DNA of 64,000 nt from a virus (Duplodnaviria; Caudoviricetes), in IMG/VR virus record IMGVR_UViG_638275558_000001, positions 65,909 to 129,908 of that record. One strand, given 5' to 3'. This document shows positions 8,392 to 59,586 of the stretch, piece by piece. Every line of letters begins with the position of its first letter. Position 1 is the first letter of the stretch. The translations under genes and the position numbers were made by a program. The notes beneath the pieces were generated by a model that worked only from the letters and a program-made list of their open reading frames with translations, ran no database searches and was not told the DNA's origin.

Positions 8392-10060
8392 TACCCGTTA
8401 CAACATACAAACTGAAAGATGAGTGTGTAACGTTAAATTCCGGATAATAAGAATTAACCGGCACCACTGAAAGAGTTTTTCCATAGAAAATATTTCTTAC
8501 CGCTTCTTTAAAAGCATTCATTATGGTTTCTTTTCGGTAAAAAGGTTCGGTGTTGTAAGATAGATTGATAAATCCATAGATTTTATCTCTGTATAGAGAG
8601 TAACTGTAACCTACTCTATAGTTAATTAAGTTGTATTCCTGATTTAGTGTATGGTTAACAGGCTGACTGTATACCCATTTGTAAGCAAGCCAGCGGTGTT
8701 TTTCATACATGCTGGATATAAGCGGCTTTCGAGAGATCACAGGCGATGTGTTTCTTTGAGTAGCATTTATCCAGTAATTGATAGGCGATTCCACCTTTCT
8801 GCTCATGATGTTTGTTCTATTTCCGGCAATGATCGCTCTTCTTAATGTGTGTTTATTAATCGTTTTGAACAATTGTCGATAGATAGTGCGGGTCTTGTTT
8901 TTGACAGTGTTTCCGGTTCTATGATATGCTATAAGTATCTGTCGGAGTTGGTTGAGATCAAGGAGAAAATTTTGAGTTTTCTTTACAGAAGTGAGCAGGA
9001 CGTTACCCTGAAAACTTGGAAAGAAGTCTCTGGTGGTACGGATAACTTCCCGGATTTTTAAAAGTCTCCGGTCAAAATGGGGGATATCATAGCTTGCATA
9101 AATGTTAGTGCCCCTGAAGAACAATCCGATTATTCTATCAATGGTTGTTTTATAGTTTAATTTTATTGTGCGTATGGTTAATTTTATCAAACGTTGCATC
9201 TGATTTGCTATAAGGTTAAGGTACTTTTTAAAACTCAGAAGTCTGATGGTTACATATGGCTCTAAGGTGGAATAAATGATTTTTCCAACAAATCTGACCT
9301 GTTTAATAATCTGTTGGTAAAAACGTAGCACATAGTTAACCGGTGTGTATCCGGTCAAAGTTTTAAAGAAAGTTTTATTCACCAGAGTCGATTTAATGAG
9401 TGATCTGGTCTTGATGATAGTTTTAATAAAAAAGTTTTTGATTGAATTCAACAGACTGTTAAAGGAGGTAGATATATTTAAAACTTTAAAAAATTCTTCA
9501 GTGCTCCATACAAAAGCGGAAAGCAATTTATTGAAAGTTTTTAAATTGGGAAATCTCAGTTTTAAAGTGGGGGTGTAGTTGACAGGTGTGTTTTTTGTTT
9601 TCAAGATATACTTGAACTCATTAGAACTAAGAGGTTGGTTGACAGCATTATATCCATTGAAAAGCGTAAGTGCGTAGGGGTTGTCGTAGTTGTTGTCAAG
9701 GAAAAGTCGAAGTGCTGTCGGGTCATCATTTTCTATCAACAGCGGATCATCAATCGGGTCTATATAAGGATCATAGGGAACGGAAAATATATCCCTGAAA
9801 TCGTTTGTCGAAGTATAAATATAAGATAATGTATAGTTAAAGATTACCGACTTTGTTTCATATTTGTCAGTTGAATAAAACCTGAACCGTATACTTCCAG
9901 TATACCAGTCAGGCGGAAAGGAAGATGCCGTTAAAAGATTGAGATAGGTTATAGTAGACCCGGAGTGCGATACACCAAACCAGAACTTATTGGGTGGGGA
10001 TTGTTGAACGATAAGTGGGCTGAATACTCCTCTTCCTTTGTGGTCTACTTTAAATCTCAT
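8354..10060 (-). CDS. Hypothetical protein with long basic central region
   Basis: 568 aa ORF; K/R-rich, acid-poor middle segment. Confidence 0.65.
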   Translation of the reverse strand: MRFKVDHKGRGVFSPLIVQQSPPNKFWFGVSHSGSTITYLNLLTASSFPPDWYTGSIRFRFYSTDKYETKSVIFNYTLSYIYTSTNDFRDIFSVPYDPYIDPIDDPLLIENDDPTALRLFLDNNYDNPYALTLFNGYNAVNQPLSSNEFKYILKTKNTPVNYTPTLKLRFPNLKTFNKLLSAFVWSTEEFFKVLNISTSFNSLLNSIKNFFIKTIIKTRSLIKSTLVNKTFFKTLTGYTPVNYVLRFYQQIIKQVRFVGKIIYSTLEPYVTIRLLSFKKYLNLIANQMQRLIKLTIRTIKLNYKTTIDRIIGLFFRGTNIYASYDIPHFDRRLLKIREVIRTTRDFFPSFQGNVLLTSVKKTQNFLLDLNQLRQILIAYHRTGNTVKNKTRTIYRQLFKTINKHTLRRAIIAGNRTNIMSRKVESPINYWINATQRNTSPVISRKPLISSMYEKHRWLAYKWVYSQPVNHTLNQEYNLINYRVGYSYSLYRDKIYGFINLSYNTEPFYRKETIMNAFKEAVRNIFYGKTLSVVPVNSYYPEFNVTHSSFSLYVVTGSGGGSDANCQYD

Positions 10061-11506: not shown

Positions 11507-12595
11507 ATGTTTTACGAACCTTCTGTAAGCTTTTTTGCAGTATATCCTCAGTACAGCACCAGCGCGGCTTTTCTCACAGAATTCAATAAATCATCGGCGT
11601 GGGTGCTCCACAAACTGGGCTACCCGGTGGTATCGGTGGAATTGACGAAAGATCAGCTTATGTTTCTCTTTCACGAAGCATGGCAAGAATACTCTCAGTA
11701 TATTTCAGAATTTCTGATTCAGGAAAACTATGATAACGTTTTAATAAAAAACATTTTCCAGACGGAAGGGGAAATCTTTGAGAAGTTTCCCAAACCTAAC
11801 AGTTCGCTTATCATCGAGCTTTCTGATCGCTATGGAATGTACGACATGAACACCGAATATGTAATCATTCCACTTACCGCTTCTCAATCGGTTTATGACT
11901 TGAAGAATTACATTACCGCATCCGGAAAAATTCACGTTCAGCAGGTGCTTGTCAATAGACCGCGCGTTGGTCTTGGTTCTACGCTGTACGGTAATGCTTT
12001 TGTCTTCAACAACTATTCTCCCTTCACCGTAGGATACGGCGCGGGCTGGAATATCGGTCAGGTGCTCACGCCGCTTTCCTATCTTGCCACCACCATGCAG
12101 GCTACCGATCTTGCCTACAATATGTATCGCAAGCTCCACTTCTTTGAAATTGTCTCTGGAAGTATGATTCGCATTTCTCCTGTTCCCGATTCCAACGACT
12201 CCCGGCTTACAATCAGATACAAACTGGAACGGGAAGAAGGTGATCTTATTGAAATGTACAATTCAATATTTTATACGAAAACAGGTCTCCTCGATCTGGA
12301 AAAACTAAATGAAAACTCCCTTATTGTGCTTCGGCATATCTTCCTCATGAAGGTGATCGATACGCTTATTTTCATCCGCAAGAAGTACGACAACTACGCA
12401 CTTCCCAATGCGGAACTTACGCTGAACGTCGACAACCTGAAGGAACTCAGGGAATCCACCAAGGAAAAGATCGACAAATACAAAGAGTGGCTTGACAACA
12501 TGAAACTTCACGCAAGGCTTCAGCGGAAAGGAGAAGAAGCAGAAGCGCTGGAGCGGGAACTCCAGCGCTATCCTATGGGGTTCCTATTTATGTAA
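11507..12595 (+). CDS. Neck protein, T4 gp13-like
   Basis: LGYPVVSVELTKDQL resembles the gp13 N-terminal LGxPxIxVExxxxQ motif; C-terminal LPNAELTLN and P-x-G-F end. Confidence 0.8.
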   Translation: MFYEPSVSFFAVYPQYSTSAAFLTEFNKSSAWVLHKLGYPVVSVELTKDQLMFLFHEAWQEYSQYISEFLIQENYDNVLIKNIFQTEGEIFEKFPKPNSSLIIELSDRYGMYDMNTEYVIIPLTASQSVYDLKNYITASGKIHVQQVLVNRPRVGLGSTLYGNAFVFNNYSPFTVGYGAGWNIGQVLTPLSYLATTMQATDLAYNMYRKLHFFEIVSGSMIRISPVPDSNDSRLTIRYKLEREEGDLIEMYNSIFYTKTGLLDLEKLNENSLIVLRHIFLMKVIDTLIFIRKKYDNYALPNAELTLNVDNLKELRESTKEKIDKYKEWLDNMKLHARLQRKGEEAEALERELQRYPMGFLFM

Positions 12596-12599
12596 TCTC

Positions 12600-12755
12600 T
12601 CACCTGCAATCACTCAGCGTGCAGGCGCCCATGGGGTGATCTCCTCTACCGGGCTTTTTGAACGGCGGTGGAATCTTATGTCCCGGTTTGTGGTGTGCAG
12701 TAACTTCCTCAACCTTTCCATAGGTTGTGAGCATGGGGGTAATCCACCTTTTCAT
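12600..12755 (-). CDS. 51-aa peptide with lasso-RiPP-like leader (not in ORF track)
   Basis: Manual translation MKRWITPMLTTYGKVEEVTAHHKPGHKIPPPFKKPGRGDHPMGACTLSDCR; GGAGA RBS and gccATG start context; stop 4 nt from the convergent gp13 stop. Confidence 0.75.
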   Translation of the reverse strand: MKRWITPMLTTYGKVEEVTAHHKPGHKIPPPFKKPGRGDHPMGACTLSDCR

Positions 12756-12887
12756 GGCTTCTCCGATTTTTTATTGTTGGTTCTTATAGATAAATAACCC
12801 TGTGGCACGCATCGTAAGTGAAAAACCACCCCAACAGCCACCACCGGTTCACATAACGGAAAAATTCTTTGCCTTTTTTAAACTCTT

Positions 12888-13160
12888 TCATGATTGTTCT
12901 TCTTTTGGAAGATTCAGCTTAATGGTGATATAATCCGAGTCGGGGAATTCTTTTCTTAAATCCTCCAGCGACTCATACACAAAAATCATCCCGACGGCAC
13001 CGGTGTTAGCTATCTTAGAAAGTGGATAGACGACTTTCTGAACGCCGTTATTGATGACAACCTGCAGGTCATCCAGAAAGTTAAGCTGCATCGCGACGTA
13101 ATACACGCGCTCTTCGTTATTGTTGTCGTTCATGGCACACAGGGTTTTAAGGTTACGCAT
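12888..13160 (-). CDS. Hypothetical protein
   Basis: 90 aa at the end of the polymerase gene run. Confidence 0.6.
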   Translation of the reverse strand: MRNLKTLCAMNDNNNEERVYYVAMQLNFLDDLQVVINNGVQKVVYPLSKIANTGAVGMIFVYESLEDLRKEFPDSDYITIKLNLPKEEQS

Positions 13161-13689
13161 GGTAGTCTATTTTTACAATGTAGGTTTTGTCGTTATATTC
13201 TATCATGTGATAATGCGCCTGATAAATATGGGTTCCTTCCAGAAATAGGGGCTCGTTACCTTCAAGGTAGACGAACACCATATCTTCGTCTCCACCCCCC
13301 TGAGAAAGGCGGATAAAGGGAGTGTGCTGACTCTGGTGAGTAATACCGATAACAACATCGGGGTTTTTCTCGATAAAATCGAGAATTTCCCGCTCCTGTT
13401 CAGTGGGTTCAAAATGCTTCCATTGATACACCCGGTAGGGGCGATTCGAAGCGATGTAATAGGGAAGAGAAGCTACATGTCGGTTATAAATATCCAGAAC
13501 AATCTCTTCAATATCAGTATTTTCTTTATTTTTAATTTCTTCCTCGAGTAGCATGTTAAGATCAAGTATCATGTGAGCCAGCGTGCTGACTTCTGCTTCA
13601 TGCATTTTAATACCTTTCTTTTCAAGGATACGAACAATGCCTTCAGTGTCGAATTTGAGAATCATGGCGCTAATGGGTTTAGTTTTCAC
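13153..13689 (-). CDS. Hypothetical protein
   Basis: 178 aa; overlaps the polB stop. Confidence 0.6.
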   Translation of the reverse strand: MKTKPISAMILKFDTEGIVRILEKKGIKMHEAEVSTLAHMILDLNMLLEEEIKNKENTDIEEIVLDIYNRHVASLPYYIASNRPYRVYQWKHFEPTEQEREILDFIEKNPDVVIGITHQSQHTPFIRLSQGGGDEDMVFVYLEGNEPLFLEGTHIYQAHYHMIEYNDKTYIVKIDYHA

Positions 13690-37986: not shown

Positions 37987-38876
37987 CTGGAAGTGTACAC
38001 CGTTTCTCCGACGATATAGAGACGCTGTCCACGAGATGTTCTTGAAACCTGAAAGGTGGCATTGTAAATGTCGTGATCTTCAACCACTTCTTCAAGCTTT
38101 TTCTTAATATCTCGATAAAGAAATGACTTTTCATCCACGTAGAAGAAGTACATCCACGTCTGATACTCTTCTCCCCCCATTTTTTCCGAAGAGTGATCTT
38201 CCTGATACAGGTGAAATCCGTAATCCTTTAAAATAGGTATATGTTTTTTGATGGCGTCGGATGAAGCCTCGCTTCCGTCATAAAATACCTTGAGAATCAT
38301 ATTCTCCATTCCGGTGGAAGGAATGACAACTTTCCCTTCTTCCGTATACGCACCCTGAATGGCAATAAGCAGCAGCCCCGGAGATATTTCATCAAAGAAC
38401 TGGTAGGTATCCTCGACGGCGCGAATATCGGTAATCAATGTAATCTTGGTTTTACCTTTTTTGACAAGGTTGCGAAGGGCAAAAATGGAAAGGAAAACAA
38501 CCGCTTCGAGAACCTGATCCGGAGACAAATCTTCCGATCTTCTTATGCTTAAGAAATACTCCCGGTGGTAGTCTCTCAGACGAAATCTCAGATCTTCCTC
38601 TTTCCTCAAAACCCTCGCAATGCGACGGTCTGTTTCAACAATGAAGTCGGTATGCGTTATTTTTTTCTCCCATTCTCCGTCGAAAAATTCTACATCGTAA
38701 ACAATAAAACCTATCGTGTTGTAGTGGTAGTTGATTTCTACTTCGATTCCCCATGAACTATCAGGCGCACGAAACAGAAAGTTTCGCGGGGTAAGCTTCC
38801 ACTTCTCCAGAACCGCGCTTTGAAAATTGACGAAGTTTGTAATGATTTTCCTGAGTGCATTCCTCAGTTCACTCAT
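37983..38876 (-). CDS. Hypothetical protein
   Basis: 297 aa; ATGA overlap with the protease gene. Confidence 0.7.
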   Translation of the reverse strand: MSELRNALRKIITNFVNFQSAVLEKWKLTPRNFLFRAPDSSWGIEVEINYHYNTIGFIVYDVEFFDGEWEKKITHTDFIVETDRRIARVLRKEEDLRFRLRDYHREYFLSIRRSEDLSPDQVLEAVVFLSIFALRNLVKKGKTKITLITDIRAVEDTYQFFDEISPGLLLIAIQGAYTEEGKVVIPSTGMENMILKVFYDGSEASSDAIKKHIPILKDYGFHLYQEDHSSEKMGGEEYQTWMYFFYVDEKSFLYRDIKKKLEEVVEDHDIYNATFQVSRTSRGQRLYIVGETVYTSS

Positions 38877-56710: not shown

Positions 56711-56812
56711 TCTTTTCTGTTAAATAAATGTGAATCCGTAGGAAAGGGAAAACATCAGGGGAAAGCACACATATAAGAACCAGAACCCAGAACAAAAAAT
56801 AGGAGGAAGGTT

Positions 56813-59248: not shown

Positions 59249-59586
59249 ACGAAAAAGCGTTCCAGTTCCGCAATCTTCTAAAGGAAGTGATCGGCATGCG
59301 AATCCTCGAGCGATTCAACCACATAGAACCTGAAGGAAAAAGGAAATGGGTAATTTTATCCGCCTACATTCTAATAGTGGAAGAAGAAAATGCACCCCAG
59401 ATCTGCAAGGAACTTGTTCGAAACAATACAGAGATAGATCCTCTGGAATTTGTCAGATCTTTCAAAGAAGAACTTATAAACATGATCGAAAATCAAAATT
59501 ATCGAAATGAATTTGAGAAATACGTTGCAAACTACGCGATAGAAAACGAAATCAATTACAGAAACATGATAGCAAACTTTTTCTGA
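59245..59586 (+). CDS. Hypothetical protein
   Basis: 113 aa; ATGA overlap with upstream gene. Confidence 0.65.
   Translation: MNEKAFQFRNLLKEVIGMRILERFNHIEPEGKRKWVILSAYILIVEEENAPQICKELVRNNTEIDPLEFVRSFKEELINMIENQNYRNEFEKYVANYAIENEINYRNMIANFF

Follow-up and report, generated by a model that had tools for sequence, protein, structure and literature searches.

A 51-codon open reading frame (ORF) in the genome of a heat-loving Caudoviricetes phage (IMG/VR record IMGVR_UViG_638275558_000001) appears to encode a diverged, host-derived member of NF033534, a Rhodothermus-specific family of lasso peptide precursors. The frame starts with ATG and occupies 12755..12600 on the minus strand of the 64,000-nucleotide (nt) stretch analysed here (the window), which makes up the latter half of a virus record of 129,908 nt (G000:C1:65909-129908). 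Direct reading and the ORF translation give exactly the coordinates and sequence reported in the first-pass annotation of the window. The phage encodes no recognition element (RRE, or B1) for peptides that are made on the ribosome and then modified post-translationally (RiPPs), no leader peptidase (B2), and no cyclase (C), kinase or exporter, so the peptide most likely acts through the lasso machinery of the infected cell. The interpretation that we rank first, with slightly less than even confidence, is that the peptide enters the host lasso pathway in trans as a substrate and gives rise to a phage-specified peptide.

Homology of the phage peptide to bacterial lasso precursors

The peptide matches NCBIfam family NF033534 ("rhodolasso, lasso peptide") with 32.4 bits (E 5.5e-8), residues 3-51 aligning with profile positions 5-49 of 49; the curated cut-off of the family is 30 bits, and a six-frame search with the same profile gave 30.3 bits for the phage ORF. 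A second lasso family, NF033528 lasso_cyano, matched the leader only, at 20.1 bits and below cut-off. We also built a hidden Markov model (HMM) from eight bacterial precursors with the phage sequence excluded. This bacteria-only model scored the phage peptide at 44.9 bits over its full length, with 22.7 bits for the leader alone and 21.7 bits for the core alone, and none of 2000 shuffles reached the full, leader or core score (best core shuffle, 6.1). The two parts of the peptide are placed as follows.

12696..12755, minus strand: leader region MKRWITPMLTTYGKVEEVTA, residues 1-20, with W4, P7, L9, G13, K14 and T19
12603..12695, minus strand: core region HHKPGHKIPPPFKKPGRGDHPMGACTLSDCR, residues 21-51, with the family-invariant K33, G36, D39, L47, S48 and C50 retained

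The consensus of lasso leaders is (Y/W)xxPxLxxxGxxxxxT, with Thr at position -2. The first-pass annotation had proposed that residues 4-19 fit this consensus and had suggested leader HMMs as a check, and the proposal was borne out: W4, P7, L9, G13 and T19 fall on the pattern, the peptide passes the NF033534 cut-off, and the leader itself is of the lasso type. The pattern [YW]xxPxLxxxGxxxxxT occurs once in the six frames of the 129,908-nt phage genome, where 0.07 occurrences are expected (30 shuffles). Identity between the phage peptide and the eight bacterial precursors is 38-51%, and W4, P7, L9, G13, K14 and T19 are all invariant in their alignment. Over all ten rows of the alignment the invariant residues are M1, W4, P7, L9, G13, K14, T19, K33, D39, L47, S48 and C50. 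The phage peptide retains 13 of the 17 columns that are invariant in bacteria, and the Lys-Arg pair is present, displaced by one residue.

The same annotation described the core as non-lasso and raised the prospect of a new RiPP class. Neither description holds. A core score of 21.7 bits that no shuffle reached, together with the retention of K33, G36, D39, L47, S48 and C50, indicates that the core is a diverged homologue of the bacterial cores rather than unrelated sequence, and places the peptide in NF033534. It was correctly noted that a core beginning at His21 has no Asp or Glu at positions 7-9; the first acidic residue is Asp39. Every bacterial member likewise has no Asp or Glu at positions 7-9 past the Thr-x site, so this is an oddity of the whole family and not of the phage copy. 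The bacterial segment between Thr-x and Cys is variable, from 1 to 5 residues. On one reading, which is conjecture, most bacterial peptides might form a Gly-to-Asp ring of eight that matches Phe32-Asp39 of the phage peptide; such a ring requires a cleavage site without Thr at -2. The terminal CxxxxC reported earlier is present as C45xxxxC50 but is not conserved among phage alleles, C45 being His in an allele found on 14 contigs.

Distribution of the family and link between phage and host

NF033534 exceeded its cut-off in 6 of 201 sampled Rhodothermales genomes, four of which carry tandem pairs. The six genomes account for 6 of the 7 genomes of one genus, that of genome G030, and the family was found in 0 of the other 194 sampled Rhodothermales. 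In one member of the genus, G062, the search found no precursor. A 401-genome sample of the phylum gave the same picture, with four matching genomes, all of this genus, and 0 of 397 others. A profile search of 5.8 billion proteins found 13 clusters in the family; the named ones are assigned to Rhodothermus marinus, Rhodothermus profundi or 'bacterium HR18', and P0001 alone is of the phage type. Against NF033534 the bacterial members reach 50-114 bits, compared with 32 for the phage copy.

CRISPR arrays adjoining Cas1 genes in three genomes (G030, G003 and G048) comprise 226 repeat-spacer units. Compared with the phage genome, these gave nine matches of spacer length, which come without exception from the G030 and G003 arrays (L090 in G030:C2; L093 and L095 in G003:C1). 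The best lie at phage positions 11370-11407 (38/38), 59381-59415 (34/35) and 128809-128846 (35/38), with further matches at 91654-91690 (34/37) and 38444-38471 (27/28); two extra 15-nt hits were treated as noise. The presence of these spacers in G030 and G003 indicates that the genus that owns the family has met this phage.

Outside the window, the phage genome also carries a TnpB/IS605-OrfB-like ORF of 295 aa (G000:C1:44821-45708, plus strand; L003:1322-2209). Its GC content is 59.5% in a phage of 42.5% GC, and its residues 123-294 are 77% identical to an ORF at a contig end of a Rhodothermaceae genome (L004). Its sequence suggests an insertion element of host origin in the phage genome. This match led to the first bacterial genome used in the family search (G001).

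Lasso machinery in the host genus and its absence from the phage

In G030 the family sits in one locus, L072, in which the genes are arranged as follows.

L072:9586-9735 and 9790-9945: tandem pair of rhodolasso precursors (NF033534), beside the cyclase
L072, gene order: HprK-like kinase, cyclase, two precursors, ABC exporter, PqqD chaperone

The cyclase matches NF033535 at 838 bits (cut-off 525) and the PqqD chaperone matches NF033536 at 80.4 bits (cut-off 80) and Pfam PqqD at 77.3 bits; the HprK-like kinase is distant, at 41.8 bits to TIGR04352 (cut-off 200). The cyclase adjoins the precursors in all five genomes examined. The B2 peptidase, NF033537, exceeded its cut-off in 3 of 3 genomes and always lies away from the cyclase and precursor locus, at ~740 kb in G030, at ~163 kb in G075 and on another contig in G087.

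L077/L099 (G030:C1, around 1840487-1840909): B2 site in G030
G075:C2:167042-167782: B2 site in G075
G087:C63: B2 site in G087

This distance implies that the host pathway already works with an unlinked component. A second HprK-like ORF adjoins B2 in G030, and a second PqqD paralogue lies within ~1 kb of B2 in G075 and G087; the PqqD paralogues are 32-39% identical (five genomes). A search of the 17 kb that surround B2 in G030 found no ORF with such a leader. A 241-aa ORF that follows the PqqD gene (L072:12514-13239) was considered as B2 and rejected: it matches no family, has an Arg-rich, spurious look, and the real B2 is located elsewhere.

In five host clusters the stretch from the rhodolasso genes to the ABC exporter also holds a third ORF with a leader, 71-72 aa long.

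L072:10114-10332, plus strand: third leader-bearing ORF
L073:10357-10575, plus strand: third leader-bearing ORF
L075:9942-10160, plus strand: third leader-bearing ORF
L074:9044-9259, minus strand: third leader-bearing ORF
L076:9150-9368, minus strand: third leader-bearing ORF

Its leader reads KK-x-W-x-RP-x-L-x3-G-x5-T, and its core of ~45 aa is rich in Gly, Pro, Trp and His, ends in LSGL or LSGP and, in G075, has zero Asp or Glu. No NCBIfam family matches it at cut-off (best 17 bits, leader only), and it may be an unrecognized precursor class that uses the same chaperone. Its presence in five genomes suggests that several cores share one leader type. The phage core is not kin to this third type, the match between them being confined to the leader (12.6 bits; core -0.3 bits). 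An invariant Leu-Ser near the C-terminus in the three host precursor types and the phage peptide, taken with the two kinase-like genes, suggests by analogy that Ser may be phosphorylated as in paeninodin-type clusters.

In the phage, profiles for Asn_synthase, PqqD, Transglut_core3 and NF033537 gave 0 matches at E<=10 over the whole 129.9 kb, and the usual context of NF033534, an adjoining cyclase and PqqD chaperone, is lacking at the phage copy. The earlier observation that the window holds no cyclase, peptidase or RRE thus extends to the rest of the phage genome, and of the two places proposed for a lasso or RRE cluster, the host and the phage, one was found in the Rhodothermus host genus and none in the phage. 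The proposal that the peptide targets an RRE-dependent pathway of the host gains strong, if indirect, support from the restriction of the family to the host genus and from the predicted host locus for cyclase, PqqD protein and exporter, with B2 elsewhere.

The phage gene and its signals

We regard ORF 12600-12755, on sequence evidence, as a genuine phage gene that would form a self-contained cassette of promoter-like motif, Shine-Dalgarno sequence, 51 codons and terminator hairpin. Its signals are listed below.

12778..12788, minus strand: promoter-like motif TATAAGAACCA (putative promoter), 22 nt 5' of the ATG
12760..12764, minus strand: Shine-Dalgarno-like GGAGA, 4 nt 5' of the ATG
12600..12602, minus strand: stop codon TGA, by sequence reading
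12534..12569, minus strand: terminator-like hairpin of 11 pairs (7 G-C) with a loop of 4 and a T-rich tail, starting 31 nt past the stop codon

The GGAGA ribosome-binding site was annotated previously and is present at 12764-12760. By a crude count, Shine-Dalgarno-like cores occur at -16 to -4 in just 18 of 119 long phage ORFs, which makes the GGAGA of the peptide gene unusual in this phage. The gccATG start context, said earlier to be used by other genes here, was found at only 4 of the 119 long ORFs. The phage context GG.G..GCCATG resembles the GGTGCTGC(C/T)ATG of the bacterial precursors. The hairpin overlaps the 3' end of a convergent plus strand gene (11507-12595), and in the bacterial clusters a G+C-rich hairpin and a T run likewise lie 3' of the last precursor gene. 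The peptide ORF stands at the end of a minus-strand block that includes a DNA polymerase gene.

Exact copies of TATAAGAACCA number three over the entire phage genome, against a Markov-1 expectation of 0.084, and all of them lie upstream of a same-strand ATG, at a distance of 12-30 nt. The second copy (56772-56782, plus strand) lies 30 nt 5' of the gene for a 381-aa AAA_5 (MoxR-class) ATPase, and the third, outside the window (G000 ~4198, minus strand), lies 12 nt 5' of a 27-codon ORF. The shared motif upstream of the MoxR gene was therefore reported correctly, but recurrence of an 11-mer is not rare here: 1732 of 240,000 distinct 11-mers recur at least three times in the phage genome, and when one mismatch is allowed the count in the window is matched by 16 of 100 shuffles. 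On these grounds TATAAGAACCA is a candidate phage promoter element, and its role is suggestive only. The motif recalls the T4 late promoter, TATAAATA.

The first-pass annotation called the gene hidden, but the exact 51-aa protein already stands in a protein collection, with NCBI as its source. Sequence searches of Pfam, PHROGs and PDB gave no match to the peptide; in a phage collection, 11500-14000 found no counterpart by megablast, and all tblastn hits of the peptide had E >=4. No relatives of the peptide were found among genome, viral or metagenome contigs, nor of alignment A3 among viral contigs or of the variant protein P0002 (described below) among metagenome contigs. A phmmer search of 1.84 billion representatives returned four hits, of which two are phage alleles and the others, P0003 (a 940-aa repeat protein) and P0004, looked like chance matches on inspection. 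X24, a raw metatranscriptome run, yielded 0 reads from the ~3% of it that was scanned, a sample too small for any test.

Variation and age of the gene

Twenty runs from 12 studies contain the stretch or part of it, and four of these runs were compared, including X1, X16 and X19. Within the ORF, X16, a 17.2-kb hot-spring contig, shows five third-position changes, all synonymous, besides C45H, for which two bases of one codon are altered, and an insertion of 6 nt that keeps the frame, with at most one more difference unlisted within 12300-12817; X1, a soil contig, has one additional synonymous change. Pooled over X1 and X16, 6 of 8 listed substitutions are synonymous, compared with 21.6% of all single-base changes possible in the ORF (P = 0.002), and the neighbouring plus strand gene shows the same third-position pattern. 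A plus strand ORF at 12636-12797 was rejected as a real gene because the substitutions sit on third positions of the minus frame.

The other alleles are G38E+A44T, C45H+LS (14 contigs), G36S+C45H+LS, T46M and W4R (one contig). The leader is unchanged in 4 of the 5 other full-length alleles and variation is concentrated in the core. A constant leader and a variable core, as read from these alleles, would fit the habit of RiPP precursor families.

Between the phage region and six bacterial loci we found no nucleotide similarity, only tblastx matches in the frame of the ORF. That similarity to the bacterial genes survives only at the protein level implies that the capture is old, yet the motif residues have been retained. 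The GC content of the ORF, 52.6%, lies between the phage mean of 42.5% (it is in the top 7% of windows) and the 54-62% of the bacterial genes, which fits an old capture that may have partly adapted to the base composition of the phage. The upstream 90-aa ORF matched the host PqqD region in tblastx on the antisense strand, which marks this hit as spurious.

Both X1 and X16 carry 339-342 extra nt at 12817/12818, inside a 35-codon ORF (12784-12891) that may therefore be a deletion scar. At 12906, close to where the 90-aa ORF has its 3' end, X16 is also 13 nt shorter.

Proposed mechanism and evidence against it

Entry into the host pathway in trans is ranked first because the leader invariants, the mid-core Lys, Gly and Asp and the Leu-Ser-Asp-Cys-Arg tail are all retained and could be read only by host enzymes. 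The leader, W4-x2-P7-x-L9-x3-G13-K14-x4-T19, would be bound by the PqqD-type chaperone of the host, and the host B2 peptidase would cut near Thr19-Ala20. Host cyclase, kinase and ABC exporter would then act on the phage core, which keeps the invariant Lys33, Asp39 and Leu-Ser-Asp-Cys tail and carries a phage-specific segment rich in His, Pro and Lys. Host enzymes would thereby produce a variant peptide whose sequence the phage specifies. Transcription of the gene, leader binding, cleavage, cyclization, export and a benefit to the phage are steps that we infer. The wider proposition, that a lytic phage brings only the substrate gene of a host RiPP pathway and takes over or jams that pathway during infection, is doubtful in our estimate, though a real prospect.

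Several observations weigh against the first-ranked mechanism. The NF033534 score is a mere 2.4 bits above cut-off. A bacteria-invariant Cys is lost, the Cys-aromatic segment (CWY, CWF or CYL) being replaced by HHKPGHKIPPPF; at the position just ahead of the invariant Lys, the bacterial Gly is Phe in the phage; and Tyr takes the place of the bacteria-invariant His that precedes Gly-Lys, as it also does in the bacterial P0019 and P0020. With no Asp or Glu at 7-9 from the Thr-x site, the phage core fails the textbook rule for ring acceptors. The chemistry of the bacterial family is itself uncharacterized: a literature search found no paper using 'rhodolasso', and the literature that joins lasso peptides with Rhodothermus has neither term in title or abstract. 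An RNA-library contig, X19, covers 12300-12649 only and then continues into unlike sequence, and it may be DNA.

The remaining points of this kind concern the integrity of the gene. The W4R allele (one contig) alters a recognition residue; an 11-nt deletion in X1 removes the last two codons and the stop, on our reading of the table; and a minor X1 joint skips 12596-12866, the whole gene (31-letter side, depth 4.3). P0002, from one metagenome relative, is a 107-aa fusion without residues 1-11, in which the first ~64 residues of its homologue of the upstream 178-aa protein (window 13153-13689, minus strand) are joined in frame to residues 12-51 (79% identity); it implies a deletion of ~0.8 kb that removed the 90-aa and 35-aa ORFs and the leader start. 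These deletion, fusion and insertion variants show a plastic region in which the gene acts like an accessory cassette. It has the marks of a phage auxiliary gene or moron cassette: a family from the host genus, its own signals, variable presence and no PHROG.

Alternative explanations

The peptide might instead be a decoy or inhibitor that binds the PqqD chaperone of the host, and through it B2 or the cyclase, while being a poor or dead-end substrate, so that maturation of the host precursors is blocked as a counter-defence or as a means of halting an ATP-consuming pathway. We consider this unlikely, if not greatly so. It would account for the retention of every invariant recognition residue in the leader, the most conserved part among the phage alleles, and for a core whose N-terminal half is rebuilt, with a Pro-rich KIPPPF for the Cys-aromatic segment and Phe for Gly before the invariant Lys. 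A role for host RiPPs, including lasso peptides, in anti-phage defence has also been proposed from co-expression: a 2024 metagenome study (PMC11118758) ties host RiPPs to phage interactions in this way, and describes a RiPP set from which viral contigs were excluded. A pure leader decoy, however, needs no core, yet this core scores 21.7 bits and keeps K33, G36, D39 and L47-S48-D49-C50-R51, and the host peptides whose maturation it would block are without known function. If the gene were a passenger or relic, a captured host precursor without present function that is drifting to loss, the plastic surroundings would be expected, with ~340 extra nt at 12817/12818, a joint that deletes the whole gene, the 11-nt deletion of the stop, the fusion and W4R; and the TnpB-type ORF, with its 77% identity to a Rhodothermaceae ORF, indicates that host DNA does enter this phage. 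We think this improbable. Although all nucleotide similarity has gone, the reading frame remains uninterrupted and retains the leader invariants; 6 of the 8 listed substitutions are synonymous; and the gene is equipped with a terminator, a strong Shine-Dalgarno sequence and an upstream motif of phage type that also precedes two other phage starts. Moreover, alleles with an intact gene prevail (five sequences, one recorded on 14 contigs), and the stretch or part of it occurs in runs from 12 studies.

Composition raises another thought. At 19% Pro, 13% His and 13% Lys the core is unlike the bacterial A1/A2 cores, and the P0002 fusion keeps residues 12-51 in frame while dropping W4, P7 and L9, as might be expected of a small phage protein that acts unmodified and outside the lasso pathway, for example as a basic His/Pro/Lys-rich binder of metal or nucleic acid with the leader as historical baggage. 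This is decidedly improbable given that the leader is the best-conserved part among alleles and that the family invariants of the C-terminal tail are kept; no Pfam, PHROG or PDB match points to another role. That the frame is a chance opening in an intergenic spacer and not a gene is very unlikely. It is short and has no PHROG family, but it passes a curated family cut-off with HMM scores far above those of shuffles, polymorphism favours the third positions of its frame, a bias also seen in the gene next to it, its sole insertion is in frame, and the leader pattern occurs once in the phage genome.

Comparison with known systems

The closest counterparts of the phage peptide are the rhodolasso precursors of Rhodothermus, with which it has in common a length of ~50 aa, the leader KR-x-W-x2-P-x-L-x3-GK-x4-T, the invariant mid-core Lys, Gly and Asp, the tail TLSDCR followed by the stop, a similar GG.G..GCCATG start context and a terminator 3' of the gene. 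It differs from them as a viral orphan without a nearby cyclase, B1, B2 or exporter, with a 12-residue His/Pro/Lys-rich stretch in place of the Cys-aromatic segment and with lower GC. The canonical lasso pathway (microcin J25, paeninodin, fusilassin) uses a PqqD-type RRE, a B2 peptidase and an Asn-synthetase-like cyclase. The phage peptide shares with its precursors the leader motif with Thr at -2, and both it and its bacterial relatives depart from them in having no Asp or Glu at 7-9 past the Thr-x site. The kinase-like genes of the host loci recall paeninodin-type clusters, and the lasso families encountered in our NCBIfam profile searches include lasso_cyano and lasso_PadeA_fam.

Separation of precursor and enzymes is familiar from the prochlorosins and ProcM, in which leaders are conserved, cores are variable and precursors need not adjoin the enzymes, with every gene housed in a single cellular genome; in the present case it is a virus of the cell that carries the additional precursor. 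Sublancin, encoded on SPbeta, is a case of a mobile viral genome with a ribosomal-peptide gene together with modifying and export genes, whereas this phage carries the substrate gene alone. The arbitrium peptides of phages (AimP) are short pro-peptides matured via host proteases and transporters. The peptide described here has no sequence relation to them and another type of leader, and no receptor or regulator gene was identified here.

Significance

RiPP precursors are usually viewed as parts of cellular gene clusters, and this would be a virus that contributes a precursor alone, one matched to a pathway specific to the host genus. In the literature that we searched, we found no report of a phage encoding a lone lasso precursor. 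What is new is thus the setting, a known precursor family present as a substrate-only gene that a lytic phage appears to carry. If this reading is true, it would be the first virus-encoded 'substrate-only' RiPP gene, and phages could reprogram or sabotage ribosomal-peptide biosynthesis with a gene of ~150 nt. It would provide a naturally occurring, thermostable system for the study of leader-guided processing in trans, with the leader retained and half of the core remodelled, and both host and phage are cultivable and non-pathogenic. The gene also points to an uncharacterized lasso-type system in Rhodothermus whose cores break the textbook ring rule; its gene set is split, and its three precursors with leaders all lack a canonical ring acceptor. 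If the phage peptide does enter this pathway, the Rhodothermus lasso system would take part in the conflict between phage and host.

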